Assembly (NCBI GenBank): GCA_910588195.1
Contig: CAJUPN010000003.1
Location: 42,842 to 106,841, forward strand
DNA from: an uncultured Bacilli bacterium
GTDB taxonomy: Bacteria; Bacillota_I; Bacilli_A; RF39; UBA660
DNA: 64,000 nucleotides
Reading direction: 5' to 3'
The translations under genes and the position numbers were made by a program. Below the pieces are notes generated by a model. That model was not told where the DNA came from and ran no database searches. It saw only the letters and a program-made list of their open reading frames with translations. Below are positions 1-38,409 of the stretch, in pieces (position 1 is the first letter of the stretch; every line of letters starts with the position of its first letter).

Positions 1-864
1 AAAATTTATAAACATACTTATTTTAATGAAAAAAAAGTTGTAAAGATAATAATGGATATAATACTTATATATTTAAGAGAATGCAAAAGTACAAATAGTA
101 TAGATTTTGATGATATGATTACTGAAGCAGCTAAAATAGTTAATAAAAAGAATATAGCATATAAATATATAATTATTGATGAATTTCAAGATACTTCTTA
201 TGTTAGATATAATCTTATAAAAGAAATTATTAAAAAATGTGATTCATATGTTTTTGTTGTTGGTGATGACTGGCAAAGCATCTATAGGTTTTCCGGATGT
301 AATTTAAATATATTTGTTAATTTTAAAGAGTTTTTTTCTGATGTTAATATTTTTAATTTAAAATATACTTATAGGAACAGCAATGAATTAATTAACATTA
401 GTTCAAGATTTATTATGAAAAATAAAAAGCAATTAAAAAAAGAGATTATTTCAAACAAAAATTTAAATAAACCTATTAAAATTGTAATAGGATATAATAT
501 AGATGAAACTATTAAATTAATTAATGATAAAGATATTTTAATAATTGGAAGAAATAATTCAGATATTAAAGATATAAAATGGGATAATCTACTTACGATT
601 CATCGATCTAAAGGGTTGGAGGCCAATAACGTAATACTAGTTAATTCTGATAATATTCCGTCCAAAATAAAGAATGAAAAAGTTTTGCGATATGTTCTTC
701 AAGAAAAAGATTATATTCCTTTTGAAGAAGAAAGAAGATTATTTTATGTTGCTCTTACTAGAACTAAAAATAGCATTTATATTATGGTTAATAAAACTAT
801 GAGTCCTTTTGTAAAAGAGTTATTACATGACAATAAAAATGGTATTCAAATATTAAAAAAGTAG
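1..864 (+). CDS. UvrD/Rep-type superfamily-1 DNA helicase, C-terminal part (5' end outside window)
   Basis: The frame of ORF 52..864 stays open back to base 1. Motifs IIIDEFQDTS, VVGDDWQSIYRFSG, TIHRSKGLE and YVALTRTK are typical of UvrD-like helicases. Confidence 0.75.
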   Translation, partial: KIYKHTYFNEKKVVKIIMDIILIYLRECKSTNSIDFDDMITEAAKIVNKKNIAYKYIIIDEFQDTSYVRYNLIKEIIKKCDSYVFVVGDDWQSIYRFSGCNLNIFVNFKEFFSDVNIFNLKYTYRNSNELINISSRFIMKNKKQLKKEIISNKNLNKPIKIVIGYNIDETIKLINDKDILIIGRNNSDIKDIKWDNLLTIHRSKGLEANNVILVNSDNIPSKIKNEKVLRYVLQEKDYIPFEEERRLFYVALTRTKNSIYIMVNKTMSPFVKELLHDNKNGIQILKK

Positions 865-885
865 AGACTATTTTCTCTACTTTTT

Positions 886-1425
886 CTAATAATTTTCTGC
901 TTTAACTTCAAAATAACTTTGTGGGTGAGCACATACTGGACAAACTTCTGGAGCTTGTTTTCCAATAACAATGTGTCCACAGTTTCGGCATTTCCAAATT
1001 GTATCTCCATCTTTTGAGAATACAAGTCCACCTTCAACATTCTCAATTAACTTACGATATCTTTCTTCATGTTCTTTTTCAATTGCCGCAACACTTTCAA
1101 ATAAGAATGCTATTCTATCGAAACCTTCTTCTTTGGCAGTTTTAGCAAATTCATCATACATGTCAGTCCACTCAAAGTTTTCACCTTCGGCAGCAGAAAC
1201 TAAATTATCAAGAGTTGATGGTACTTCTCCTCCATTTAATTCTTTGAACCATAATTTAGCATGTTCTTTTTCATTCTCTGCAGTTTCTAAGAATATTGCT
1301 GCTATTTGTTCATACCCTTCTTTTTTTGCTTTTGATGCAAAATATGTATATTTATTTCTTGCTTGTGATTCACCAGCAAAAGCAGTCATTAAATTTTGTT
1401 CTGTTTTACTTCCTTCTAATTTCAT
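886..1425 (-). CDS. rbr: Rubrerythrin
   Basis: 179 aa. Ferritin-like diiron part ([26 protein letters not shown]) plus a C-terminal rubredoxin-like CRNCG...CPVC. Confidence 0.9.
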
Positions 1426-1537
1426 ATAAAATTCCTTTCTACTAAGTAATTGCTTACTCAGTTTAATTATAACATATTTTTTGTTTTATTTTGAAGTAAA
1501 TTTAGTGTTTTTATGTAATAAATATATAGGAGGATAT

Positions 1538-1816
1538 ATGAATACTTGGAAAGAAATTAATGAGATAAATTTGTATTACATCAAATATAATGTAGTTCCA
1601 AATCTTGTTGCTTTTGGTCTTGCCTATTCATACTATAATAAAATAACTTTAAATTGTAGTATGGATGAATATTTTAATAATGTTTTTGCATTATTTAATA
1701 TTGTTAATATTAATATAAAAGATCAGTTTAAATTAGTTGATAACATATTAATAAATAGATATAAACTTATAATAATAAAAACTGATTCAATTGAATTAAT
1801 TAAAATAAGGAAATAA
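1538..1816 (+). CDS. Small hypothetical protein immediately upstream of essC
   Basis: ATG at 1538 is preceded by AGGAGG. 92 aa with no recognisable motif. Position suggests co-transcription with the T7SS ATPase. Confidence 0.4.
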   Translation: MNTWKEINEINLYYIKYNVVPNLVAFGLAYSYYNKITLNCSMDEYFNNVFALFNIVNINIKDQFKLVDNILINRYKLIIIKTDSIELIKIRK

Positions 1817-1882
1817 GTCTTCTTTAACTTTCTTATTATAAATTGATATGTTATAATTTAACTATGATAAAAAGGTGGTAAC

Positions 1883-4800
1883 ATGAAGCTTTATATAGCC
1901 GATAAAACAAAGATATATGATTTTAATTTGCCTGCAAGAGTGGAGGATTCTTTTTTAATTAATTATGTTTCGCCAGAAGGAGTTTCAGAAAATATTACTT
2001 TAATAGCTGATAATGGAAAATGGACTTTAAGAAAAAACCAAAACTATATTGTTAAAAAAAATGTGTTTGATATTGATGTTGATATTGTTGAAAATTTATC
2101 TTTTTATGATATTTCTTTTAATGATATAAAAGACCCTATTAAAATGTTTTTTTATGAAGCTCCAATAAATTATAATAGATACTCTATTATGGGTAAGACA
2201 AGAATAGTTATAGGTGGAGAAGAATGTGATATCATTTGCAAGTCTATAGGGATTAATCAAAATCAGGTTGTTATAGAACTTACTAATGGATTTTGGGAAA
2301 TTAAGTCTTTAGATAATTTAGTATATACTTATGTTAATTCTAAAAGGATTCTTTCCTCAAAATTAAATGCTGGAGACATAATTTTTATAGATGGCATAAA
2401 AATAATCTGGATGGTAAGCTTTATTCTTATTAATGATGTTCCAGATAAATTACAAGTTTCTTTTCCGATTGATGAGAGTCAAAAATTATTACATGATGAT
2501 AATTTATGTGAACCAGTTGATGGTACTGAAAAATACGCTACACTTTATAATGATAATGATGTTTTTTTTCATACCCCAAGATTAAAATCAGAATTTAAAA
2601 AAACACAGGTCCATATTGATGCTCCACCTGATGTCATTAAAGATGATGGTCCACCAGCAATACTAACTTTAGGTGCAACAATAATGATGGGTGTATCTTC
2701 TTCTATAACAGGAATAGTAGCAATATTTAGCGTGGTTTCTGGTCAAAGAAGTTTAGTAGGTTCTATATCAGAAATTATTATTTGTATTGCACTAATACTT
2801 GGATGTATTTTATTTCCTATATTATTGGATAAGTATCAAAGGAAAAAACTTCAGACAAAAGAAAACAATAGACAAAATAAATACAGTGAATATCTAAAAA
2901 AGAAAAAAAGTAAAATTAATGATTTAATGCAAAGAGAAAAAGAAATTCTTTTTCAAAATAATCTTAATTCTGAAGAATTAATTGACAATATTCAAAAAGT
3001 AACTAATAAAATTTGGAGCCGTGAAATAGGTGATAATGATTTTTTAACTTTTAGATTAGGTATTGGTAATAAAAAAGCAGATTTGGAAATTGATGCTACT
3101 ATTGAAGATTTTAGAATTGAAGATGATAATTTAAAAGAAGAAGTAGAGTCATTAGTTAATACTAAATTTATTTTAAATGATGTTCCAATTACCATATCAG
3201 CAATTGAAAATAGAATATTACCAATTATAATAGATGAAACATTTTCTAATAGAAAAGAAGTAATTGACAACATTATGGCTCAATTAATCTCTTTCTATAG
3301 TGGTATTGATTTAAAAATTGTTGTTTTTACTGATGAAGAAAATTATAGTAAATGGGAATATTTGAAATATTTGCCACATTTAAAAAGCAATGATAGTGAT
3401 GTAAGATTTTTTGCAACAAATGAAGATGAGATGAAGCAAGTATCATCTTATTTAGAAAATATATTTGTAGAAAGAAATATTAAAATAAAAAATATTGAAC
3501 GCACAGAAGAGGAACAAGATCCTAAAGAAAATAATCAGTATTACAAAAACTTTGATGAATACTATTTAATTGTTACTGATAATTATCTATTAGCAAAAAG
3601 ATCAGGTATAGTAGATAAAATATTAAATAGTAAAGCAAATACTGGTTTTTCTTTAATGATGATTGAAGAGTCTTTAAAAAATATTCCTAGTAGATTTAGC
3701 CAATTCATACAGTTTAAGAATAATGAATCTGGTATATTTAGCAAGGATTTAAGTGCATTGCAAGATTATAGTTTTAAACCAGATTTATTTATTGGAGATA
3801 TAGCAATTTCTTCGTTGACTATTGCTAATATTCCAGCTTCTTCTATAAATTTAGCTAATCAACTTCCAAATACTATTAACTTTTTAGAAATGTACAATGT
3901 TGGAAAAATTGATCAACTTAACATTGTTAATAGATGGACTAAAAATGATCCAACTAATAGTTTAAAGGCTCCTATTGGAGTGCACCCTGATGGAAAGCTT
4001 TTTGAATTAGACTTACATGAAAAATTTCATGGTCCTCATGGTTTAATTGCTGGATCTACTGGTTCTGGTAAGAGTGAGTTTATTATTTCATTTATCTTAT
4101 CTATGGCGGTTAATTATCACCCTGATGAAGTTCAATTTGTTCTTATTGATTATAAAGGTGGTGGCTTAGCTGGAGCCTTTGAAAATAGAGAAACTGGAAT
4201 AAAGATTCCTCATCTTGTTGGAACTATTACAAATTTAGATACGGGAGAAATGAATAGAACACTTGTATCGATTAATAGTGAACTCAAAAGACGACAAAGA
4301 ATGTTTAATGAAGCTAGAGATTTACTTGGTGAGAGTACTGTTGACATTTATAAATATCAAAAATTTTATCGTGATGGCAAAGTTAAAGTACCTATTTCTC
4401 ATCTATTTATAATATCTGATGAGTTTGCAGAATTAAAAAGTCAACAGCCTGATTTTATGGATGAATTAATATCAGCTGCTAGAATTGGTAGATCTCTTGG
4501 AGTTCATTTAATACTAGCAACTCAAAAGCCAAGTGGAGTTGTCGATGATCAAATCTGGTCTAACTCTAAATTTAAAATATGTTTAAAAGTACAAACATCA
4601 GAGGATAGTATGGAATTACTAAAAAGGTCGGATGCTGCAAGTATTAAAGAAACAGGACGATTTTATTTACAAGTTGGATTTGATGAATTGTTTGAAATTG
4701 GTCAATCAGCATGGTCTGGAGCCAGATATATTCCTCAAGATAGAATGGAAAAAAATATTGACGATTCAATAAAAATTGTTGACAATAGTGGTAATTTGAT

Positions 4801-6469
4801 CAAAGAAATTACTGATACAATAAAAATAGAAAGCCAAGTAAACTATGGTGATCAGTTAACGAATATTGTTAAATCTTTATATGAAATATCAAAACGTGAA
4901 AATATAAATACGAGACAATTATGGTTACCAAGTATTCCTCCAGAAATATACTTAATAAACACGATTAAAAAATATAGCTATAAACCACAACCTTATCTAA
5001 TAAATCCTGTAATTGGAGAATATGATATACCAGCATCTCAGCTACAAAATATTTTAACAATTGATTTTACTAATTCTGGTAATTTAATTATTTATGGAAA
5101 TGCGGGCACAGGAAAAGAAAATCTTCTAATGACTTTAGTTTATTCTATCTGTATATTTCATACTTCAGCAGAAATTAGTCTTTATATAATGGATTTTGGT
5201 GCAGAGGTTTTAAAGATTTTCTCTTCAATTCCGCAAGTAGGAGATGTTGTTTTACTAGAAGAAAATAATAAAGTTAGAAGTCTATTATTAATGATAGAAA
5301 GAGAAATAAATAGAAGAAAAGAACTATTTTCAAAACATGGTGGAAGTTACATTTCATATATAAAAAATTCAGATGAAAAAATGCCTTTAATGATGATTAT
5401 TCTAAATGGTTATGAAACATTTATAGAGAGTCATGGCGATTATGATGATTTCTTTGCTCATCTAGTTCGAGAGAGTTCTAAATATGGAATTGTATTTGTT
5501 ATGACAGCCATTTCTCCATCATCTGTAAAGACAAAGATTAGTCAGTCATTCCCAAATAAGATAGCTACACAATTGTCAGATAATTTTGATTATAAATTCT
5601 ATTTAGATGCACCAGAGGGTCTAACTCCATCTAAATATTTTGGTCGAGGAATTATTAGTATGGATGGTTCTGCTTATGAAATGCAAAGTTGTTTAATTGC
5701 TCAAAAAAATTTAATTAATCAATGTATAATAACAACTTTTGAAAAATATGCTAAGACAGCATCTAAAACTCCTCCTATCCCTGTTATTCCTAAAGTAATT
5801 ACTTCTGATACTTTATCAAGTTATATTGATAGCATAAAAAATGTGCCAATCGGTATAAATATTTATGACGCAAGTGTTAATAAGTTTGATTTTACTGCTA
5901 ATAAGATATCACAAATAATAGGTAATAATTTATTAATTGAAAATGCTTTTATTACTAATTTTGTTTCCATAATGTCTTCCATTCCAAATGTAAATGTAAA
6001 AATTATAGATTTCGTTGGATGTATTTCAGACAATTATGGATTAGATTATGTTAGTGGTGAATTCACTGCTAACATTAGTCAGATAGAAAATGAAAGTAGC
6101 GAAAAATCAATCGTTTATATTTTATTAGGAGTTGGTTATATTTACGATAAAGTTTTAGATGAAGGAATTGATAAATTGTTTAGTATTTTAGACAATTTAA
6201 ATAATTTACAAAATAAACATTTTATCTTTGCAGATAATTATTCTTCGTATAAGCGAATTATGAAAGAAGATTGGTACAGTAAAATTGTTAACAACAAATC
6301 TGGAATTTGGATTGGTAAAGGCGTTGATATTCAAAATGCAATTAAGTTTAATTCAATGTCTTTAAGTGATGTTAATGAGAACTTTAAAGGACTAGCATAT
6401 GTTTCAAATAATGAAATATATCATGTTATAAAGAGTTTAGGTACTGAAGATGGAGGCGATATTTATTAA
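1883..6469 (+). CDS. essC: Type VII secretion FtsK/SpoIIIE-family ATPase EssC/YukB
   Basis: 1528 aa. N-terminal FHA-like region, two TM helices (about aa 255-315) and three tandem FtsK/SpoIIIE ATPase modules. D1 has a canonical Walker A GSTGSGKS (nt 4052-4075) and Walker B IISDEFAEL. Confidence 0.9.
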   Translation: MKLYIADKTKIYDFNLPARVEDSFLINYVSPEGVSENITLIADNGKWTLRKNQNYIVKKNVFDIDVDIVENLSFYDISFNDIKDPIKMFFYEAPINYNRYSIMGKTRIVIGGEECDIICKSIGINQNQVVIELTNGFWEIKSLDNLVYTYVNSKRILSSKLNAGDIIFIDGIKIIWMVSFILINDVPDKLQVSFPIDESQKLLHDDNLCEPVDGTEKYATLYNDNDVFFHTPRLKSEFKKTQVHIDAPPDVIKDDGPPAILTLGATIMMGVSSSITGIVAIFSVVSGQRSLVGSISEIIICIALILGCILFPILLDKYQRKKLQTKENNRQNKYSEYLKKKKSKINDLMQREKEILFQNNLNSEELIDNIQKVTNKIWSREIGDNDFLTFRLGIGNKKADLEIDATIEDFRIEDDNLKEEVESLVNTKFILNDVPITISAIENRILPIIIDETFSNRKEVIDNIMAQLISFYSGIDLKIVVFTDEENYSKWEYLKYLPHLKSNDSDVRFFATNEDEMKQVSSYLENIFVERNIKIKNIERTEEEQDPKENNQYYKNFDEYYLIVTDNYLLAKRSGIVDKILNSKANTGFSLMMIEESLKNIPSRFSQFIQFKNNESGIFSKDLSALQDYSFKPDLFIGDIAISSLTIANIPASSINLANQLPNTINFLEMYNVGKIDQLNIVNRWTKNDPTNSLKAPIGVHPDGKLFELDLHEKFHGPHGLIAGSTGSGKSEFIISFILSMAVNYHPDEVQFVLIDYKGGGLAGAFENRETGIKIPHLVGTITNLDTGEMNRTLVSINSELKRRQRMFNEARDLLGESTVDIYKYQKFYRDGKVKVPISHLFIISDEFAELKSQQPDFMDELISAARIGRSLGVHLILATQKPSGVVDDQIWSNSKFKICLKVQTSEDSMELLKRSDAASIKETGRFYLQVGFDELFEIGQSAWSGARYIPQDRMEKNIDDSIKIVDNSGNLIKEITDTIKIESQVNYGDQLTNIVKSLYEISKRENINTRQLWLPSIPPEIYLINTIKKYSYKPQPYLINPVIGEYDIPASQLQNILTIDFTNSGNLIIYGNAGTGKENLLMTLVYSICIFHTSAEISLYIMDFGAEVLKIFSSIPQVGDVVLLEENNKVRSLLLMIEREINRRKELFSKHGGSYISYIKNSDEKMPLMMIILNGYETFIESHGDYDDFFAHLVRESSKYGIVFVMTAISPSSVKTKISQSFPNKIATQLSDNFDYKFYLDAPEGLTPSKYFGRGIISMDGSAYEMQSCLIAQKNLINQCIITTFEKYAKTASKTPPIPVIPKVITSDTLSSYIDSIKNVPIGINIYDASVNKFDFTANKISQIIGNNLLIENAFITNFVSIMSSIPNVNVKIIDFVGCISDNYGLDYVSGEFTANISQIENESSEKSIVYILLGVGYIYDKVLDEGIDKLFSILDNLNNLQNKHFIFADNYSSYKRIMKEDWYSKIVNNKSGIWIGKGVDIQNAIKFNSMSLSDVNENFKGLAYVSNNEIYHVIKSLGTEDGGDIY

Positions 6470-6725
6470 TAATAAGGTTTTTATAAAATTATTAATCCCT
6501 GAAATTGATAAAAGTTATGATGTTTCATTACCTGTTAATAAAAGAATTGGAAACATAATAAATCTTTTAAATGCAACAGTTTCTGAAATGTCTAATGGTG
6601 AATTAACGCTTTCAAAAAACAGTGTCCTTTATAATGCAAGAACTGGAGAAAAATATATGCCAAACACACTATTACTTAATACTAATATTCGCAATGGTAC
6701 TATATTAGTTTTACTTACAAATTAA
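6450..6725 (+). CDS. esaB: EsaB/YukD-like small ubiquitin-fold T7SS protein
   Basis: 91 aa, overlaps the essC 3' end by 20 nt. Pattern of beta-strand hydrophobics and the C-terminal NGTILVLL resemble YukD/EsaB (GDxLxLL tail). Confidence 0.6.
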   Translation: MEAIFINNKVFIKLLIPEIDKSYDVSLPVNKRIGNIINLLNATVSEMSNGELTLSKNSVLYNARTGEKYMPNTLLLNTNIRNGTILVLLTN

Positions 6726-6749
6726 AATCACTTCATACGAAGTGATTTT
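6724..6749. terminator. Bidirectional rho-independent terminator between the convergent essC-esaB and WXG operons
   Basis: 11-bp perfect stem aaaatcacttc / gaagtgatttt with loop atac, flanked by A/T runs on both sides. Confidence 0.7.
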
Positions 6750-6754
6750 AATTA

Positions 6755-7081
6755 TTAACTCTTTACTGAATCAGACACATCTCTAATTACATTTGATGAT
6801 GTATCATATTTAGAATAATTACTTGCTAATGTAGAAATTCTATTTTGGAATCTATCTAAAGATTGAAATAATACAGTTATTTGTTGATCAATTGTATTAA
6901 TCAAAGTTGTAGCTTGAGCTTCAACTGAAGTTCCTTTTATAGCAGCTTGTATTTCTGACTTAGATGCAGAAATATTTGTTAATTTTACTAAACTATTTTT
7001 ATAATCTTGAACTGCTTGTTGCATTTTCGCAATACCTGCAGTGTTAATACCAGTTATTCCTGTTGCCATTTTATTCACCAT
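6755..7081 (-). CDS. WXG100-superfamily-like small helical protein lacking the WXG motif
   Basis: 108 aa, no signal peptide, predicted helix-turn-helix hairpin. Lies directly downstream of a WXG protein. The central turn reads IKGTSVEA instead of WxG. Confidence 0.5.
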   Translation of the reverse strand: MVNKMATGITGINTAGIAKMQQAVQDYKNSLVKLTNISASKSEIQAAIKGTSVEAQATTLINTIDQQITVLFQSLDRFQNRISTLASNYSKYDTSSNVIRDVSDSVKS

Positions 7082-7086
7082 TCTTT

Positions 7087-7392
7087 CTACTTATTATTGG
7101 TTTGGAATTTCATAAATGCACTTTGTTCAGTATCGAATGCATCTACATATTTCTTAAAATTAGATATATTTTTATTTAAAGTATCTATTTGTTTTTCAAG
7201 ATCTTTAATAAATGCTGTTGCATCTTCTCCTACCCAATAATTGTTGATTGTATTTACCATTGACTTATAGCTGTCACTTGTTGGAGTTAATTTTTTTGTA
7301 ACTGCTGTAATGTCTCCAATTAGGTTTGCTTTTAAATTCTTTATGCCTGTAGTACTACGTGCATAAGTTGCGTTTGACATTGTTAAACCCAT
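7087..7392 (-). CDS. WXG100 (ESAT-6-like) protein
   Basis: 101 aa with a central W-V-G (NNYWVGEDATAF) at aa 53-55. No signal peptide. Adjacent to essC. Confidence 0.65.
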   Translation of the reverse strand: MGLTMSNATYARSTTGIKNLKANLIGDITAVTKKLTPTSDSYKSMVNTINNYWVGEDATAFIKDLEKQIDTLNKNISNFKKYVDAFDTEQSAFMKFQTNNK

Positions 7393-7414
7393 AATGTACC
7401 TTCTTTCTAATTAA

Positions 7415-7443
7415 AGTTTAACAAAGCCATGTAAACGTTTCAA
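7415..7443 (-). promoter_or_regulatory. Candidate sigma-A promoter for the WXG gene pair
   Basis: On the minus strand: TTGAAA (7443-7438), 17-nt spacer, TAAACT (7420-7415). GAAGG RBS before the ATG. Confidence 0.4.
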
Positions 7444-7477
7444 GGAAAAATGACAAATATTTACATTTTATTTTCAC

Positions 7478-8026
7478 TTATTTACTGAGTTTAAGTTTTT
7501 TTATTCTATCTTGGATAATTTGCATAGTTTCAGTAACTTCTTCTTTTGATATTTCACGATCTTCATTGAATTTTTCGACTATAACTCCAGCTTCTCTAAG
7601 CATTATATGACTAATTTCTACTTCATCAGGCTTAGAATAGTTTCTTAAATAAACTATCTTTTTTATACCAGATTGAATAACTTCTTTTGTACACTCTGTA
7701 CAAGGAAACCAAGTAACATAAAGTGTTTTCCCTCTCAAATCTCCATTATAGTTTAAAATGGCATTTCTCTCTGCATGAACTGTATAATAATCTTTAATAT
7801 TCTTTTTTATACCTGTTTTTTCTCCTGATGATGCCCAATCAAATGTATCATCATTCATACCACGTGGTAATCCATTATAACCAATAGATAAGATTTTATG
7901 ACTTTCTTCATCAATTATACATGCACCAACTTGATTTGATGGATCTTTACTTCGTAAAGATGCAAGCAACGCATTACCCATAAAGTATTCTTCCCAATCA
8001 AGATATTGTTCTCTTTTTGTTGACAT
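7478..8026 (-). CDS. comEB: dCMP deaminase (ComEB family)
   Basis: Zinc-deaminase motifs HAERNA and PCTECT. 182 aa. Confidence 0.85.
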   Translation of the reverse strand: MSTKREQYLDWEEYFMGNALLASLRSKDPSNQVGACIIDEESHKILSIGYNGLPRGMNDDTFDWASSGEKTGIKKNIKDYYTVHAERNAILNYNGDLRGKTLYVTWFPCTECTKEVIQSGIKKIVYLRNYSKPDEVEISHIMLREAGVIVEKFNEDREISKEEVTETMQIIQDRIKKLKLSK

Positions 8027-8038
8027 AATAAAACTCCT

Positions 8039-8866
8039 TTAAAATAATGATAATTGATATTTATCTTCAATTTTTTTTGCATTCCATATTGGTGCTAAAT
8101 ATTCATATAGGCTTTTAATTTGATCATTGTATTTTTTTGATAATATTGATTTGTCATAAATAGGCAAATTAAGAGAATCTATTAGTGTTGAAATTTCAGT
8201 ACAAAATTCAAAAAAAGTTTCTTCATTATAGTTTCTAACTAAAAGACTACGCAAACGTTTAACAACTTTTTCCTTTCGATAATAATTGGTTTTAGACATT
8301 TTCTCCTTTAATTTGTCTTTTTTCTCAATAAAATCTATATCTGGTATTGTTTCTTGAGCATAGTCAAGAGACTCTGCGATGTCTAATGAGGATAAGCGCT
8401 CTACTATACAAATATTTTGGCTTATGTACTTTAAAAATTCTGTCTTAAAATATTCAGGTGAAGCTGTGGTATATGATTCAACGGCATTACATAGATGAGT
8501 TAAAACCTCTATTTCTACTCTTCTTGCAAGGTCAATTTGTATATCCTCTAAACTTGCCCATATGACTTTAGATATGGCATTATAGTGATCATGTCCGCTA
8601 CATAATGATACTAAATAACTTCCAAAAGTAAAAAGTGTTTCTTCAGTTTTATAATATGCCATATTATTAAATAAGAAGAAAAATATTTGAGCTTTATTGT
8701 ATGTTCCTGTATCTTCTTCATATTCTATACTGTTATGGTTTTTCATATTTTTATTTTCTAATAAAATAGAATCAGTTGTTTGTTTAAATTCTTCTAATGT
8801 TATTTTATTTTCTAATGATTTATTTAACATAACCAAAGCCATTTTTAAAGCCAATGTTCTATTCAT
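8039..8866 (-). CDS. Hypothetical protein
   Basis: 275-aa ORF just upstream of comEB on the same strand. No motif recognised. Confidence 0.45.
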   Translation of the reverse strand: MNRTLALKMALVMLNKSLENKITLEEFKQTTDSILLENKNMKNHNSIEYEEDTGTYNKAQIFFFLFNNMAYYKTEETLFTFGSYLVSLCSGHDHYNAISKVIWASLEDIQIDLARRVEIEVLTHLCNAVESYTTASPEYFKTEFLKYISQNICIVERLSSLDIAESLDYAQETIPDIDFIEKKDKLKEKMSKTNYYRKEKVVKRLRSLLVRNYNEETFFEFCTEISTLIDSLNLPIYDKSILSKKYNDQIKSLYEYLAPIWNAKKIEDKYQLSLF

Positions 8867-8952
8867 ATTATCACCTAGTGCTATTTATTATAAATGTATA
8901 TTTAAATTAAGTAAAGAGTTTTATTTGATTGTGATATAATGTGTATGGTGAT

Positions 8953-9813
8953 ATGATGAAAATACTTAATTTGTGGCAAATTCAAGTTTTTATATACTTG
9001 ATTTCAGCTTGTATATTTGCAAGAACATTTAAACTGGCAAATCGTGATATGAAAGATGCAAATGCATTAACAGTTTTATTAGAATTATTTACTGCATTAT
9101 TTGCAATCTTTTTAATTCCTCTATTTGAAATTAAATTTCCTGGAGAGATAAAAGTCTATATTATTTTATTGATTACAACACTAATATATGCAATCACGGA
9201 TAGATTAAATATTGAAGCAAGATATGGTTTAAAACCGTCAACCTTTAGTATGCTAAAACAATTGTCAACAGTCTTTATGATTATTTTTGGCTTAGTCTTT
9301 TTAAAGGAAAAATTTGTTCCTTTAAAAGTAATTGGAGCTTTATTAATAATACTTTCAAATTTGCTTATAAGTTATGATAATGGAAAATTTGAGTTTAATA
9401 AATATTTCCTTATGGCTTTTATTTCTAATTTTTTATTTGCTGTTGCCATGCTTATAAATGTTAATATATCTGACTACTTTAATTTAGCAATATACACAAT
9501 AATAACTGTGTCTGTTCCTGCTATTATTATTTCTCTTTTTAATAGACTCACTTTTAAAAATTTAATTAAAGAATTTAAGTGTTATAACAAGAATGCTTTT
9601 ATCTTAGCTGCTTTAACTTGGTGTTTAATGTTAATTTCATCAGTTAGAGCTTACCAATTAAAAAGTGTTACTATTGTAGCTCCACTTTTTGCTCTTACTT
9701 CTATAATAAATGCTGTAGTAGAATTAATATTTGATAAAGATAGAAAAAACTTTTTAATTAAAATTATCTCAGGTATCTTAATAATTGTAGGTGTTATTCT
9801 AATAAAATTATAA
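8953..9813 (+). CDS. EamA/DMT-family transporter
   Basis: About 286 aa with about 10 hydrophobic helices arranged as two EamA-like halves. ATG at 8953/8956 preferred over the GTG at 8941. Confidence 0.65.
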   Translation: MMKILNLWQIQVFIYLISACIFARTFKLANRDMKDANALTVLLELFTALFAIFLIPLFEIKFPGEIKVYIILLITTLIYAITDRLNIEARYGLKPSTFSMLKQLSTVFMIIFGLVFLKEKFVPLKVIGALLIILSNLLISYDNGKFEFNKYFLMAFISNFLFAVAMLINVNISDYFNLAIYTIITVSVPAIIISLFNRLTFKNLIKEFKCYNKNAFILAALTWCLMLISSVRAYQLKSVTIVAPLFALTSIINAVVELIFDKDRKNFLIKIISGILIIVGVILIKL

Positions 9814-9921
9814 AAACCATGTATAATATTTTAACTTTGATCAATAATAATAATGTAATAATAAATTGATTAATTTCAAGACGTATTATTACGGAATATC
9901 TAGGGAAGAATTGTCTAGATA

Positions 9922-11734: not shown

Positions 11735-12673
11735 TTAACGTTTTTTTAATACTTCACTATCTTGTATTCCTGGAATTCTAGGATCCGAAGTTTCTATATA
11801 TTCAAATTCTTTTTCATAAAAACATTTTTGAAGTTCTTCTTGAGATATGGATAGTAACCCACTATTTGGATTATAGTAGTAATATTCTGTTTGGCTCTTA
11901 TCAGCATCAAATCCTATTTTGTTTAAAGCTATAATTGCAACAGCTGTTGCGATTCTATTATCAGAATATTCATTTTTTCTAATTATTGAAATACTAATAT
12001 TATTCTTTTTCTCTTCCTCATCAAATAAAATCTTTTTTAATTGTAAAACGTAGGATAAAGAATCAACTCCTACTATTTTTTTTGAATTAACTTTTTCAAT
12101 TAGTATTGAAAGTTTTTCATCAAGACTTATAGGTTTGATATTAGAAGTGGTTTGCTGATATTCACATATAAGTTCCTCAAAGGTCTCAATATGGTTAATC
12201 GGAGCATCACTAGAATTTAATTCTTGTTCTGCTATTAATTTGTAAATTTTGTCAACAGCATTTTTAAACTCTTGTTGTGTTTTCTTGTTTTTATTAATAC
12301 ATTTTAATCCAACTAATGGTTGATTTAATTTAGCTCGCATAATATCGCCTAAAAGAATAGAAGTTACGGAATCGGCTATCACCAAAAATTTATCACTTCT
12401 AAACTCCAGATTAGCATGTCCAGATCCATATACTTCGTTTACAAAGTTTTGATAATCAGCTTTAAAATTTATGCCTAATTCATCTAATAGTTTTGAATAT
12501 ATCAAATTAAATTCAAAACATACTACTCTATTATTTGTTAAATTGATATTAGAAACATAATTAACATCTTTATGCTTTTCTGTAGCAGGACCTTTTTGAT
12601 TAACCGCAAAATATTCATCATCATATGTTAATAATTTACACATTTTTATATAGATATAAATTGCTTTTTCCAA
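11735..12673 (-). CDS. Transglutaminase-like (Cys-His-Asp) domain protein, probable C-terminal portion of a split gene
   Basis: VCFEFNLIYSKLLDELGI ... GHANLEF ... IADS spacing fits a transglutaminase-like cysteine protease core. The annotated start is a TTG. Confidence 0.5.
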   Translation of the reverse strand: MEKAIYIYIKMCKLLTYDDEYFAVNQKGPATEKHKDVNYVSNINLTNNRVVCFEFNLIYSKLLDELGINFKADYQNFVNEVYGSGHANLEFRSDKFLVIADSVTSILLGDIMRAKLNQPLVGLKCINKNKKTQQEFKNAVDKIYKLIAEQELNSSDAPINHIETFEELICEYQQTTSNIKPISLDEKLSILIEKVNSKKIVGVDSLSYVLQLKKILFDEEEKKNNISISIIRKNEYSDNRIATAVAIIALNKIGFDADKSQTEYYYYNPNSGLLSISQEELQKCFYEKEFEYIETSDPRIPGIQDSEVLKKR

Positions 12674-12714: not shown

Positions 12715-13461
12715 TTAAATCTTCATTAATTTCAACTTTTTAAATGTTTGATCTGTTGTTTTTTTATGTCTATTTATAGCTTGTAGGTCAATTTTTTGAA
12801 GAGATTTAATATCTTTAAATCTTGTTTTTATATTTTCTGGAATAACAAAGTTTTGAAATATTTTATTATCTCTAAAAAACTTGTATGAAGCATATATAAA
12901 ATATTCTTTTGGTATTCCATTGATTGTTTTTATTTCAGAATTATTACATATTTCATCAAAATTTTCATCTGGTAAATCCATAATATCTATCATCTTTTTA
13001 ATCGGTATTGAATAGGATATTCCATCCATTTCTATACTAAAACAACTATCTTTTGTTTTATCTAAAAGTTTCTCATATGAAATGGTATTTCGTAGATTTT
13101 CATATCGAATTTCTTCTTCAGGATTTAATACTAAATTTTTAGAATTAATAAGTTCTTGTATTCCTTCTACAATAGTTGATTTAGAATATTTAATTGTTCT
13201 TCCTGTGTCTCCACCAATTATATAGCTTACGCCAAACGTTGGTATTTTATCTTCTAAAAACTTCTTGGCATAATTATAATAATTATTATTTTGAATAATT
13301 CTTTTTAAAAATTCTACTAAAACGTCCTCCCCGTTAAATAATATATGTTCACCATTATCCATATTTTTCATATCATCAGAAGTTGTTAAAATTATGGATT
13401 CTGTTATTTTCCTAAGATATGGATATTTTTCCAACGATTCTTCTATTGTTAATTCTTCCAT
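12715..13461 (-). CDS. Hypothetical protein, probable N-terminal portion of a frameshift-split gene
   Basis: 248-aa ORF. Its stop lies just after an A5 run (coding strand; plus-strand T5 at 12737-12741). The downstream ORF's frame is already open from 12739. Confidence 0.5.
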   Translation of the reverse strand: MEELTIEESLEKYPYLRKITESIILTTSDDMKNMDNGEHILFNGEDVLVEFLKRIIQNNNYYNYAKKFLEDKIPTFGVSYIIGGDTGRTIKYSKSTIVEGIQELINSKNLVLNPEEEIRYENLRNTISYEKLLDKTKDSCFSIEMDGISYSIPIKKMIDIMDLPDENFDEICNNSEIKTINGIPKEYFIYASYKFFRDNKIFQNFVIPENIKTRFKDIKSLQKIDLQAINRHKKTTDQTFKKLKLMKI

Positions 13462-17886: not shown

Positions 17887-18762
17887 CTAATAATTTTTTA
17901 ATTCAATGTTTCCATAATAATATTTAAGAATTTCTTCGTAAGTTTTATTTTCTTTAGCAAGCATATTAGCACCAAATTGACTCATTCCTACACCATGGCC
18001 ATAGCCTCTTGTTGTTATTTCATAGGAACCATTTTTCTTGGTTATTTCAAAGTCTGTACTTCGTAAATTTAATAATTTTCTAAATTCAATTCCTGAAATA
18101 ATTTTATTATCTATTGTTACTTCTTCTACATGATTTGTCTCATTTCTTTTTCCAACATTAATGCTATTAAAGCCTCCAAAAATTTCTTCTAACATACTTT
18201 TTTCAAATGAAGTTGTTACTTCATAATTTTTATTTTCTTTATCCCAAGGAGAGGAAACTGATTCTAAATTTCCCTCTTTAAAAACAGTTAAAGATGATTC
18301 TGTATAGCCATTAGATGTTGAAAAGTAAAAGCTTTTGAACAATTCATTATTTTTTTTCATAATTATACCTTTAGTTGCATTTACTGCAGAAACAATTATG
18401 TCATAATATTTTTGATAGTTATCCCCCCATTTAGAATGCATTTCTTCATCGCTTAATAAGCATTGATCTTGACTAGTTAAATTAACATTATTTATATCTC
18501 TTTGATATAATGCATATGTTCTTGAAGCAATTGCTTGTGCTTTTAATGCTTCGTTTAAATATAAAGCGGGCATTTCACAAGCTACTACTCTAACTAAATA
18601 ATCTTCTAATTCTTGATTATTATCTATTTTTATTTCTGTTGTTGGTTCTTGTTTAGGAGAAACTAAAGCTTCCTTTGTCGATGCATTAATATATGTAAAA
18701 AAACTTATTAATGATATACCTATTAAAGTAAATATACTTACATTGATAATTGTTTCTTTCAT
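17887..18762 (-). CDS. spoIID: Stage II sporulation protein D (SpoIID/LytB domain)
   Basis: ALKAQAIASRTYA and GYGHGVGMSQFGA motifs. N-terminal TM. Confidence 0.85.
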   Translation of the reverse strand: MKETIINVSIFTLIGISLISFFTYINASTKEALVSPKQEPTTEIKIDNNQELEDYLVRVVACEMPALYLNEALKAQAIASRTYALYQRDINNVNLTSQDQCLLSDEEMHSKWGDNYQKYYDIIVSAVNATKGIIMKKNNELFKSFYFSTSNGYTESSLTVFKEGNLESVSSPWDKENKNYEVTTSFEKSMLEEIFGGFNSINVGKRNETNHVEEVTIDNKIISGIEFRKLLNLRSTDFEITKKNGSYEITTRGYGHGVGMSQFGANMLAKENKTYEEILKYYYGNIELKNY

Positions 18763-22260: not shown

Positions 22261-22776
22261 TTAGAATTTGTATTTATCTAACATATCTTGTACTAGCGTT
22301 GTATATTTAACATCTTCTGTATCCTCATCAATTAAGCACAATGGAGGATACATTACACACCACCAATTAACACCTTGCTTATTTCCTAAAGATAAAACAA
22401 GGGAATCATAGTATCCAGCATCGTAGTTTATACCTTTATAATTCTTTTTTTCAAAATAATTTTTCCCAATATTTAAATCATAATTTAAATTAAGGTTGTT
22501 ATTATTTAAATATTCTTTAAGATATTTATCTATTGTATTATAATTTTCGTTTAATACTTTTGTTGCTTCTTCTTTAGAAGAAGTTTCCTTAATTAAATTT
22601 GAAACAAAAGAACTTAAATTTTTACTTATTTTATTCTTAGTTGTTTGATCCTCTAAAGTATTGGAGTTTGCTATAACTCTAAATCTTATTGAACTTTCTG
22701 GTATTATTATATTTTCTTCTTTATTGCTTATTATAATTATCATTATTATGGCTAGAAATACAAGTACTTTTTTCAT
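22261..22776 (-). CDS. spoIIR: Stage II sporulation protein R
   Basis: IRFRVIANSN and NWWCVMYPPLC signature. Signal anchor. ATG at 22776 after AAAGGGGA. Confidence 0.85.
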   Translation of the reverse strand: MKKVLVFLAIIMIIIISNKEENIIIPESSIRFRVIANSNTLEDQTTKNKISKNLSSFVSNLIKETSSKEEATKVLNENYNTIDKYLKEYLNNNNLNLNYDLNIGKNYFEKKNYKGINYDAGYYDSLVLSLGNKQGVNWWCVMYPPLCLIDEDTEDVKYTTLVQDMLDKYKF

Positions 22777-22821
22777 ATGTATTCCCCTTTCTACAATATA
22801 CATGGGGAATTTTTTTAATTT

Positions 22822-35230: not shown

Positions 35231-36592
35231 ATGGACAGAGTAGAGTTATGGAATAGTTGCTTAGAATATTTAAAATCAAAAACAGATAATATATCTTTTA
35301 GTATTTGGTTTAAAGATGCTGAACTTGTAAAAGTACAAGATAGAATTTTAGTTATAAGAGTACCAACAATTTATATAAAAGATCATATTAATCAATTTTA
35401 TACTGAACTATTGGAAGAAATGATAGAAAAATGCTCTGATGTTCCATATGAATATGAGGTTGTAATTCAAGAAGATTTAGAAAAGGAAGAAGTAAAAAAT
35501 GAACCTGTAATTATAGAAAGTGGTATAGATTTACCAAAATTTAAGGAAGATAATTCAAATTTAAATTCTTCTTATACTTTTGATAATTTTGTAGTAGGGG
35601 ATACTAATAGATTTGCAGCAACCGTTGGTTTATCGGTTGCTGAACAACCTGGAAAAGTCTATAACCCATTATTTATATATGGAAAAAGTGGACTTGGAAA
35701 AACACATTTAATGCATGCGATTGGAAATTATATAAAGAAAAATACGCAAAAATCTGTTTTATATGTTACAAGTGATACTTTTATATCAGATTTTACTAAT
35801 TTATATAAAAAAGATGAAGAAAAATATGAATTAGAACAACGATTTAAAGATAAATATAGAAATGTTGATGTTCTGATAATAGACGATATCCAATTTCTAG
35901 GTGGAGCTACGAAAACACAAGATGAATTTTTTAACACTTTTAATTTCCTTCACCAAGGACAGAAGCAGATAATTATAAGTAGTGATAGATCACCAGATGA
36001 TTTAAAAGTCTTAGAAGATCGTTTGAAAACGCGATTTAATTGGGGAATAACAGTAAATATTATGCCTCCAGACTATGAACTAAGATTAAAAATTATAAAA
36101 AATAAAATAGCAGGTAAAGAAGCTTCTGCTCTTATTAAACAGGAAGTTTTAGAATTTATTGCTAATAATTGTGAAAGCGATGTCAGACACTTAGAAGGAA
36201 CTATAAATCGCTTATTTGCTGTCACAGCAATGTATTCTCCAAAGGAAATAAATTTAGAATTTGCTCAAGAAAATTTAAAAGATTATATAGGAAATTCTCT
36301 TTATATAACAAATAATATAGCCAAAATTCAAAAAGCTGTTGCGGAATACTATGATTTAACGGTTGAAAATTTAAAAAGTAAAAAAAGAACTGCTAATATT
36401 AATAAAGCTAGGCAAATTGCGATGTATTTATGTAAAATGACTACAGAAGAGACGATTGAACGAATTGGTTTAGAATTTAATAGAGATCATGCAACAGTTA
36501 TACATGCCTGTGATAAGATTGATGAAGAATACAAAAAAAATGATGAATTAAAAGAACAAGTTAAAGAGATTAAGATGAAAATATCTAATTAA
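35231..36592 (+). CDS. dnaA: Chromosomal replication initiator DnaA
   Basis: AAA+ GKSGLGKTHL, DDIQFL and domain IV HATVIHA. Confidence 0.97.
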   Translation: MDRVELWNSCLEYLKSKTDNISFSIWFKDAELVKVQDRILVIRVPTIYIKDHINQFYTELLEEMIEKCSDVPYEYEVVIQEDLEKEEVKNEPVIIESGIDLPKFKEDNSNLNSSYTFDNFVVGDTNRFAATVGLSVAEQPGKVYNPLFIYGKSGLGKTHLMHAIGNYIKKNTQKSVLYVTSDTFISDFTNLYKKDEEKYELEQRFKDKYRNVDVLIIDDIQFLGGATKTQDEFFNTFNFLHQGQKQIIISSDRSPDDLKVLEDRLKTRFNWGITVNIMPPDYELRLKIIKNKIAGKEASALIKQEVLEFIANNCESDVRHLEGTINRLFAVTAMYSPKEINLEFAQENLKDYIGNSLYITNNIAKIQKAVAEYYDLTVENLKSKKRTANINKARQIAMYLCKMTTEETIERIGLEFNRDHATVIHACDKIDEEYKKNDELKEQVKEIKMKISN

Positions 36593-37950: not shown

Positions 37951-38409
37951 ATGAGCGATTATACTATTAATAATGAAACTCTAGCAATTATATCCTGTGG
38001 AAATGATATTTCGTTAGTATATGAGGGAAAGGAAATGTTTGTTATTAATGAAAGACCAAATAACATTATAAAGAAAAATTGTTTAAAATATGGTAGTTCT
38101 TTTGAAGGAAGATTAAAAAGTGCAGAAATTATTACAGGATGTAAGTATAAATCTCCTATTGTAGTGAGTGGTTCAAAAAGATTAATATTTTTTCCAACAT
38201 CTTCCCCAAGGTTAAAATCCGTTAGTTGGATTAATATGATGAATATTGATAGAGTTTATTATAATGCTTTAAAAAAAGTGACAGTTATTGTATTTCAAAA
38301 TGATGTTTTATTGGAATTAAAGGTCAGTTTAAACATTTTAAACAATCAAATATTAAAATCAATGCAATTAGAACATTATTTAAGAAAAAAAAGGTATAAT
38401 AGAGCATAA
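37951..38409 (+). CDS. comK: ComK-family competence transcription factor-like protein
   Basis: CLKYGSSFEGRLKS, KYKSPIVV and LIFFPTSSPRLKSVSWIN align with the ComK core (CRFFGSSYAGRK, HKPPIMV, IFLFPT...CGWIS). Confidence 0.7.
   Translation: MSDYTINNETLAIISCGNDISLVYEGKEMFVINERPNNIIKKNCLKYGSSFEGRLKSAEIITGCKYKSPIVVSGSKRLIFFPTSSPRLKSVSWINMMNIDRVYYNALKKVTVIVFQNDVLLELKVSLNILNNQILKSMQLEHYLRKKRYNRA

Follow-up and report, generated by a model that had tools for sequence, protein, structure and literature searches.

Here we describe a type VII secretion system (T7SS) locus in a 64,000-nucleotide stretch of DNA from an uncultured Bacilli bacterium (contig CAJUPN010000003.1; the whole stretch is called the window below), in which four adjacent genes encode an EssC-type membrane ATPase, a free ubiquitin-like (Ubl) protein and two small WXG100-superfamily proteins (Table 1). 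On balance, we read this locus as a functional, self-contained four-gene T7SS module, a reduced relative of T7SSb that does without homologues of EssA, EssB/YukC and EsaA/YueB, and it is probably a new, minimal T7SS variant. A more far-reaching form of this reading, to which we give slightly less than even weight, holds that EssC and the free Ubl protein make up a complete, autonomous translocon, and that, joined by the EsxA/EsxB-like pair, they form a four-gene cassette whose gain, loss and duplication affect it as a whole; this would be a subtype beyond the published subtypes a-j. The argument is carried by direct observations, namely the gene identities, the Ubl fold, the sequence motifs, purifying selection, the behaviour of the cassette and the lack of any other conserved neighbour in about 80 species.

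Table 1. Features of the T7SS locus in window coordinates; dN/dS values come from a comparison with L004, an orthologous locus whose EssC is 87% identical and at which synonymous sites are nearly saturated
Feature	Position	Strand	Basis	dN/dS
essC, T7SS FtsK/SpoIIIE-type membrane ATPase, 1528 aa	1883..6469	+	TIGR03928, Pfam and YukB matches	0.053
Ubiquitin-like (beta-grasp) protein, 91 aa, YukD/EsaB/'TsxB' analogue	6450..6725	+	fold, weak Pfam match, synteny	0.040
Perfect 15-bp hairpin, probably a bidirectional intrinsic terminator	6720..6753	both	RNA fold	
WXG100-superfamily partner, EsxB/CFP-10-like role, 108 aa listed, probably 104 aa	6755..7081	-	remote profile matches	0.18
WXG100 protein, EsxA/ESAT-6-like, 101 aa	7087..7392	-	family WxG, Pfam and PDB profile matches	0.057
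Promoter-like site TTGAAA-17-TAAACT with TG, upstream of WXG pair	7415..7443	-	weak, consensus scan	
Presence/absence cassette extent	1816..7527	.	blastn against GCA_964636965.1 (L084)	
Rubrerythrin (flanking, for comparison)				0.036

Against TIGR03928, the NCBIfam equivalog named 'type VII secretion protein EssC', EssC reaches 926.5 bits, where the cut-off is 778.4; in Pfam it matches the families FtsK_SpoIIIE (1.4e-43) and FHA (4e-5). Among solved structures, B. subtilis YukB comes closest to it (9qks, E 8e-127), with EccC proteins next. The protein is laid out with the N-terminal FHA region(s), two transmembrane (TM) helices (~263-310) and the ATPase domains after them, with Walker A motifs GSTGSGKS at 724 in D1 and GNAGTGKE at 1072 in D2, and its gene is preceded by a well-matching ribosome-binding site (AAGGTGG) ahead of the ATG. 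Across 77 full-length orthologues, D1 (the Walker A motif and its surroundings) is conserved at 0.8-0.9, and the C-terminal D3 is the most variable region, a pattern also seen in EssC variants that select different substrates. The N-terminal ~290 residues have no detectable similarity to the YukC-binding FHA region of YukB (the phmmer match begins at residue 290), which would fit a different partner or none. Hundreds of metagenomic contigs carry an identical EssC, as do two NCBI metagenome-assembled genomes (MAGs).

The open reading frame (ORF) of the 91-aa protein overlaps the end of essC by 20 nt. Taken alone, the protein matches Pfam YukD weakly (E 0.015, below the cut-off), and 19 of 55 orthologues have PF08817 YukD as their first-ranking family, in every case below the Pfam cut-off, the remaining matches being to ubiquitin-like domains; a profile of the 55 orthologues searched against PDB sequences gave no match at E <= 1, solved YukD included. 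The AlphaFold2 model (47 sequences, pLDDT 92.1) has a beta-beta-alpha-beta-beta grasp fold, for which Foldseek returned ubiquitin and ubiquitin-like proteins at a probability of 1.0, with the Ubl domain of EccD5 (7np7_D2) ranking second (E ~2e-5). Given this modelled fold, the weak Pfam matches and the synteny, the protein is assigned to the T7SS-type ubiquitin-like proteins of the EsaB/YukD/'TsxB' class as a member of divergent sequence. It ends in ...LVLLTN, without a C-terminal Gly-Gly, and its family comprises 489 clusters in public data, every one of them unnamed or 'hypothetical'.

Two small proteins are encoded on the opposite strand. Only G16, W53 and G55 are invariant across 17 orthologues of the 101-aa protein, and its W53-V-G55 is located at the turn of the helix-turn-helix; PF06013 WXG100 is matched by six of the 17 members (best E 1.3e-7), and the best PDB matches of the family profile are SAG1039 (3gvm), EsxA of S. 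aureus and Geobacillus (2vs0, 3zbh) and EsxB of B. anthracis (4j7j). The 108-aa family profile finds ESAT-6 as its best PDB match (3fav_B/1wa8_B, E 1.4e-3), and the hidden Markov models (HMMs) of the two families cross-match, the c2 HMM hitting the 108-aa protein at E 1.5e-4. Since orthologues begin 'MA..' and one source's gene call is 104 aa, translation probably starts at the second ATG, at 7069. There is no WxG in this protein; its turn reads 'AIKGT', with K-G in place of WxG, as in many partner proteins, and a YxxxD motif (YSKYD, residues 89-93) lies near its C-terminus, YxxxD/E being retained in 14 of the 17 family members, ~15-20 residues from the C-terminus. These features fit a paralogous helical partner of the WXG100 superfamily. 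One partner carries WxG and the other YxxxD/E, which makes the pair look like a heterodimer of the T7SSa kind and not like the single homodimeric EsxA of T7SSb. The small proteins of the cassette are annotated 'hypothetical' throughout in uncultured gut lineages.

The four ORFs, at 1883-7392, were found at the coordinates given in an earlier note on this DNA, and the family, fold and profile matches above agree with its assignments of essC, a YukD-like gene and two WXG100-sized genes; its rubrerythrin and dCMP deaminase flanks were borne out by the Pfam scan. Less can be said for its statement that the WXG pair has its own promoter, for which there is a consensus match, promoter-like sites in the region numbering 58 against 62.3 expected from shuffles, that is, without enrichment. 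The hairpin lies between the two convergent units, carries U-rich tracts on both strands and folds at -16.5 and -16.0 kcal/mol on the respective strands (z -9.3 and -7.2 against shuffles), and it is plausibly, and probably, a bidirectional terminator.

The missing components were sought throughout the 64-kb window and, in relatives, up to 10 kb on each side of essC. Within the window, Pfam and NCBIfam scans took in every ORF of appreciable size between 1 and 20.5 kb and, in the remainder, the unassigned or membrane ORFs. Among the ORFs scanned, there was no match to YukC/EssB (PF10140/TIGR03926), EssA, EsaA or LXG families, a local absence that the earlier note had also reported, nor to the Ecc or mycosin families (EccB, EccD, EccE, MycP), DUF5050 and Tad families, or the T7SSf-type families TsfF, TsfJ and TsfV. 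No large ORF resembling EsaA/YueB is present in the window, in which the ORFs longer than 800 aa are EssC, GyrA and Mfd only, and HMMs made for the clusters of WXG-like and other small proteins seen in related loci found no further WXG-like gene in the six-frame translation of the 64 kb. The other window ORFs are recognisable as housekeeping, cell-wall or sporulation genes.

For the comparison with relatives, one genome per species was scanned, which yielded 80 species-level loci with EssC 35-87% identical, and ORFs were called and clustered up to 10 kb on each side of essC. The sources are MAGs labelled as uncultured Bacilli, Tenericutes/Mollicutes, Erysipelotrichaceae or Clostridia, with Clostridium sp. 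CAG:451 and Candidatus Coprovivens among them. No more than two clusters are general across these loci, EssC and the ~85-aa ubiquitin-like gene, the latter lying immediately 3' of essC in 60 of the 63 loci with enough downstream sequence; WXG-like ORFs occur within 4 kb of essC in 41 of the 63, with two or more in 31 loci. No other neighbour cluster reaches more than 14 loci, and these clusters are housekeeping genes or have unrelated functions, ABC ATPase, rRNA methyltransferase and ZIP transporter genes being examples. Roughly 40 neighbours of EssB-like or EsaA-like size or topology were scanned singly against Pfam or NCBIfam without a match to any T7SS family; these candidates proved to be an ABC ATPase, ZIP transporter, MurA, SufB, RNase Y and similar proteins, a histidine kinase or a glycosyltransferase, or remained matchless. 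EsaA-like topologies in related loci sit in ABC-type permease neighbourhoods and are not recurrent, and a batch Pfam search with 123 representatives of TM neighbour clusters returned no family in more than two of them, among the 25 most frequent families listed. Comparative genomics of the locus, which the earlier note had suggested, finds that the bare essC-Ubl module recurs without a recurrent membrane partner within 10 kb of essC.

In several MAGs the essC-Ubl module occurs twice, on different contigs and with a Ubl gene in each copy (the same-MAG pairs are L024+L027, L007+L041, L028+L067 and L015+L071), and two essC genes lie side by side in single loci (L060 and L024); such paired and tandem modules suggest duplication and diversification of the minimal module. 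Some loci hold further genes beside it. A HerA/DUF87 and FtsK-like ATPase of 583-661 aa is encoded no more than a few genes away from essC in seven of the 80 loci (L010, L019, L020, L023, L026, L047 at 6907-8670, and L060) and could be a second module-linked ATPase or part of a mobile element. A 'Clostridia'-labelled subgroup with EssC ~40% identical (L042, L048, L053, L055 and L083) has a ParA/CbiA-like 274-aa gene and an unannotated single-TM protein of 480-610 aa beside essC-Ubl, together with ~210-aa proteins bearing an N-terminal WXG100 domain (examples are L053:14858-15682, L083:6537-8003 and L043:7224-7853); it may be T7SSf-like or a further variant. Downstream of essC and small WXG-like genes, L046:11548-15474 encodes a 1308-aa Rhs-repeat protein with a helical N-terminus, to which nothing in the window is comparable. 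This Rhs protein and the ~210-aa WXG100-domain proteins of distant loci are probable toxin substrates.

The extent of the cassette follows from comparison with a related species, L084 (GCA_964636965.1), in which the gene order is rubrerythrin, p92, dCMP deaminase and p269, without T7SS genes. By blastn, window positions 1-1815 correspond to L084 6438-8278 at 77.5% identity and 7528-8296 to L084 8336-9125 at 70.5% identity, leaving 5.7 kb of the window (1816-7527) opposite ~57 bp in L084; four genes, and only these, are therefore present or absent as one block. Since no direct or inverted repeats of at least 10 nt were found at the cassette borders, gain and loss cannot be told apart. The earlier note had marked a 92-aa protein (1538-1816, + strand) and a 275-aa protein (8039-8866, - strand) for closer comparison, and both were considered as possible missing parts. 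Both genes persist in the T7SS-less L084, the former beside rubrerythrin and dCMP deaminase, and this synteny therefore marks them as conserved backbone outside the secretion system, so that neither is retained as a T7SS component. The 92-aa gene is real, with a strong ribosome-binding site and a dN/dS of 0.086, and its homologues form 15 close clusters only, at about genus level, one of them lying in L084; its model (pLDDT 92) has three helices and a beta-hairpin with weak winged-helix-like matches (best E 0.08), and the product is possibly a small winged-helix protein. The 275-aa protein is likewise restricted to about genus level, and its weak NCBIfam match (E 0.0035) to the C-terminal domain of the Mycoplasma MG284/MPN403 family hints at a lineage affinity with Mollicutes. 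An EamA-type transporter gene (8941-9813, + strand) is a second presence/absence difference from L084, the alignment jumping from 8922 to 9819.

Several observations weigh against a self-contained module. EssA, EssB and EsaA are needed for secretion in every T7SSb studied experimentally (PMC10765036), and the role described for B. subtilis YukD is to help YukB associate with YukC (PMC12637312), so that the kept Ubl protein and FHA region could indicate an unrecognised YukC-like partner. All sequences analysed are MAGs or metagenome contigs. WXG-like genes were undetected near essC in 22 of the 63 loci, some distant loci have unannotated 390-550-aa proteins with a single TM helix in the vicinity of essC, and a single weak match could hide beyond the 25 Pfam families listed for the TM neighbours.

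The alternative that fares best, though we regard it as unlikely, is a differently built T7SS, whose extra membrane- or wall-spanning parts are non-homologous to known ones and are either unlinked or too variable to cluster. New subtypes are known to add parts of their own, such as kinases, TsdI and TsgL (PMC11217815), and candidates can be named here: unannotated single-TM neighbours in L017 (398 aa), L027 (421 aa), L043 (433 aa) and L045 (392/481 aa), and the c47 family of single-TM proteins of 480-610 aa near essC in some loci. The organism also has peptidoglycan and sporulation genes, and substrates must therefore cross the wall too. Yet no single-TM candidate is common to the loci or present in the window, and no family recurs among the 123 TM neighbours, among the matches listed. 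The cassette itself consists of four genes with intergenic gaps of 66, 29, 5 and 85 nt, and there is therefore no space in it for a hidden small gene.

An ordinary T7SSb with a split gene set, in which canonical essA, essB/yukC and esaA/yueB genes elsewhere in the genome supply proteins that assemble with this EssC, ranks next and is again improbable. It would accord with the need for EssA, EssB and EsaA in all T7SSb studied (PMC10765036), with an EssC that scores as T7SSb-type in NCBIfam, and with the retention of the FHA region and the Ubl partner, which serve YukC binding in B. subtilis (PMC12637312); moreover, no more than 64 kb of the genome is in view. In the described types a-j, however, the core genes cluster with essC (PMC11217815), and none of the 80 species-level loci, whose neighbourhoods are very different, has such genes within 10 kb. 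The four genes alone were gained or lost as a block, genomes with two modules show no common partner beside either of them, and the EssC N-terminus lacks similarity to the YukC-binding region of YukB. The earlier note had left a minimal T7SS, a differently built one and unlinked parts side by side; because of the 80-locus data, the presence/absence of the cassette and the purifying selection on its four genes, a minimal or differently built system is now favoured, and unlinked parts keep the low probability given here.

A T7SSb that loses four of its six canonical core genes would normally be inactive, and the genome of the host lineage is apparently reduced, so that the locus might be a decaying T7SSb remnant that secretes nothing. 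The selection data make this very improbable. All four genes have intact ORFs and are under strong purifying selection, with dN/dS values of 0.04-0.18 at saturating dS, those of essC, the Ubl gene and the 101-aa gene being comparable to that of the flanking rubrerythrin, and a remnant is therefore very unlikely; the ribosome-binding sites, the strong terminator hairpin, the conservation of catalytic D1 motifs in the 77 orthologues, the identical EssC on hundreds of contigs and the upkeep of the module in ~80 species, sometimes in duplicate, point the same way. The least probable alternative, that EssC translocates DNA or another substrate in conjugation or sporulation, as FtsK/SpoIIIE-like proteins do, and is unrelated to protein secretion, can draw on its FtsK/SpoIIIE superfamily membership, on the HerA/FtsK-like ATPases near essC in seven loci and on a probably spore-forming host, but is opposed by the equivalog score of 926 bits against 50 bits for FtsK, by the constant linkage to a YukD-type Ubl gene and WXG100 genes, and by the Rhs and WXG-fused putative toxins of distant loci.

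The classification of T7SS has been extended by Garrett, Higginson & Palmer (2024), who added subtypes c-j to T7SSa and T7SSb from RefSeq genomes (PMC11217815). The components A, B and C are near-universal across subtypes, each of which adds components of its own, and the simplest published set is that of T7SSg, with A1, A2, B, C and L; T7SSg is one of the simple A1/A2/B/C-based variants that have been proposed (PMC11217815). The present locus shares with T7SSb (S. aureus Ess, B. subtilis Yuk/Yue) an EssC with an FHA region, two TM helices and three FtsK-like ATPase domains, an adjacent small ubiquitin-like protein (EsaB/YukD), WXG100 substrate genes in the cluster and an EssC C-terminus that varies, as it does among the essC variants of S. 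aureus. It differs from T7SSb in that EssA/YueC, EssB/YukC and EsaA/YueB are absent from the cassette, from the 64-kb window and from the essC surroundings in 80 species, in having two non-identical WXG-type genes where T7SSb has a single homodimeric EsxA, in the lack of an LXG toxin/immunity island in this genome region, and in an EssC FHA region without detectable sequence similarity to that of YukB.

T7SSg (Acetivibrio/Paenibacillus) has the same complement of two WXG100 proteins (A1, A2), a ubiquitin-like B and an ATPase C (PMC11217815). Its TsgC, however, lacks FHA domains, whereas the EssC described here has a Pfam FHA match, and neither its DUF5050 beta-propeller TsgL nor its constant Tad pilus neighbours are seen here (PMC11217815). 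T7SSf of Clostridia likewise has A, B and an FHA-bearing C, with an ATPase phylogenetically near T7SSb EssC (PMC11217815), and the ParA/TadZ-like ATPase beside essC in L042, L048, L053, L055 and L083 may correspond to its TsfV; in the window and in the closest relatives, its PPM phosphatase TsfF, DUF6382-FHA protein TsfJ and TadZ-like AAA+ protein TsfV are absent. With the ESX systems of T7SSa, the locus has in common a heterodimer-type WXG100 pair, in which WxG and YxxxD/E are divided between the partners, and a Ubl protein that structurally matches the N-terminal domain of EccD5, but it has no EccB, EccD, EccE or MycP, its Ubl protein is free, and its ATPase is a single polypeptide with an FHA region. 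A T7SSb-like, FHA-bearing EssC with B, A1 and A2 and nothing else fits none of the published subtypes a-j, and a literature search found no description of this arrangement or of a T7SS in RF39-like or uncultured Bacilli.

A working scheme for such a module can be proposed by analogy with better-known systems; what we infer in it is how EssC oligomerises, which contacts are made, that secretion takes place and that no other membrane proteins are needed. EssC would oligomerise, presumably as a hexamer, as for EccC/YukB, with the two TM helices of each subunit lining a membrane channel and the D1 ATPase powering export. The co-translated Ubl protein would bind EssC between its FHA region and its DUF/D0 domain and lock it in an assembly-competent shape, as YukD does with YukB; in the B. 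subtilis structure, YukD contacts mainly YukB (FHA and DUF), burying ~30% of the YukD surface (PMC12637312). The two small proteins would form an EsxA/EsxB-type antiparallel helical-hairpin heterodimer, in which the WxG turn of the 101-aa protein, placed beside the YxxxD 'export arm' of the 104/108-aa protein, would create a bipartite signal. This signal or the C-terminal arm may then dock on the variable D3 of EssC, and the heterodimer would be exported and/or activate the ATPase. A bipartite WxG and YxxxD/E signal and docking of the C-terminal tail on D3 are established for T7SS substrates (PMC10765036).

Other parts of the window bear on the host. The DNA has ~26% GC and holds the replication origin region, marked by dnaA at 35231 and a GC-skew switch. 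Homologues of SpoIID and SpoIIR (17887-18762 and 22261-22803) are encoded in it, and so are MurA, a class A PBP and an M23 peptidase; these genes point to a host that is walled and probably spore-forming despite its very low GC and the 'Tenericutes' labels on its relatives. Beside the origin, between dnaN and a recF-like gene, lies a ComK-family gene (PF06338, E 2.7e-33; 37951-38409, + strand), an unusual site for a competence regulator. Two ORFs of 312 and 248 aa (11735-12673 and 12715-13461, - strand) are joined in another conspecific strain, where L003 10397-12124 is a single ORF of 575 aa (97-98% identity); this gene, which has no family match, is therefore split in the window by a frameshift or stop.

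The make-up of the T7SSb channel and its indispensable parts are unsettled, the intact T7SSb complex being unresolved, and the YukB-YukC-YukD structure of 2025 gave no hexamer (PMC12637312). The occurrence of a bare module in about 80 related species suggests that a type VII secretion machine can be far simpler than thought, and the cassette offers a compact 5.7-kb, four-gene construct for testing whether EssC alone can be the pore. As a natural minimal system, it may show which roles EssA, EssB and EsaA play as accessory parts, for example in wall spanning, target contact or regulation, and it would extend the T7SS catalogue a-j, drawn from RefSeq isolates, into unsampled, uncultured gut lineages. 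If the more far-reaching reading is true, an autonomous EssC-Ubl translocon would set the lower limit of what type VII secretion needs to cross a Gram-positive membrane, and its cassette would be gained, lost and duplicated across a large clade of uncultured, small-genome gut Bacilli.

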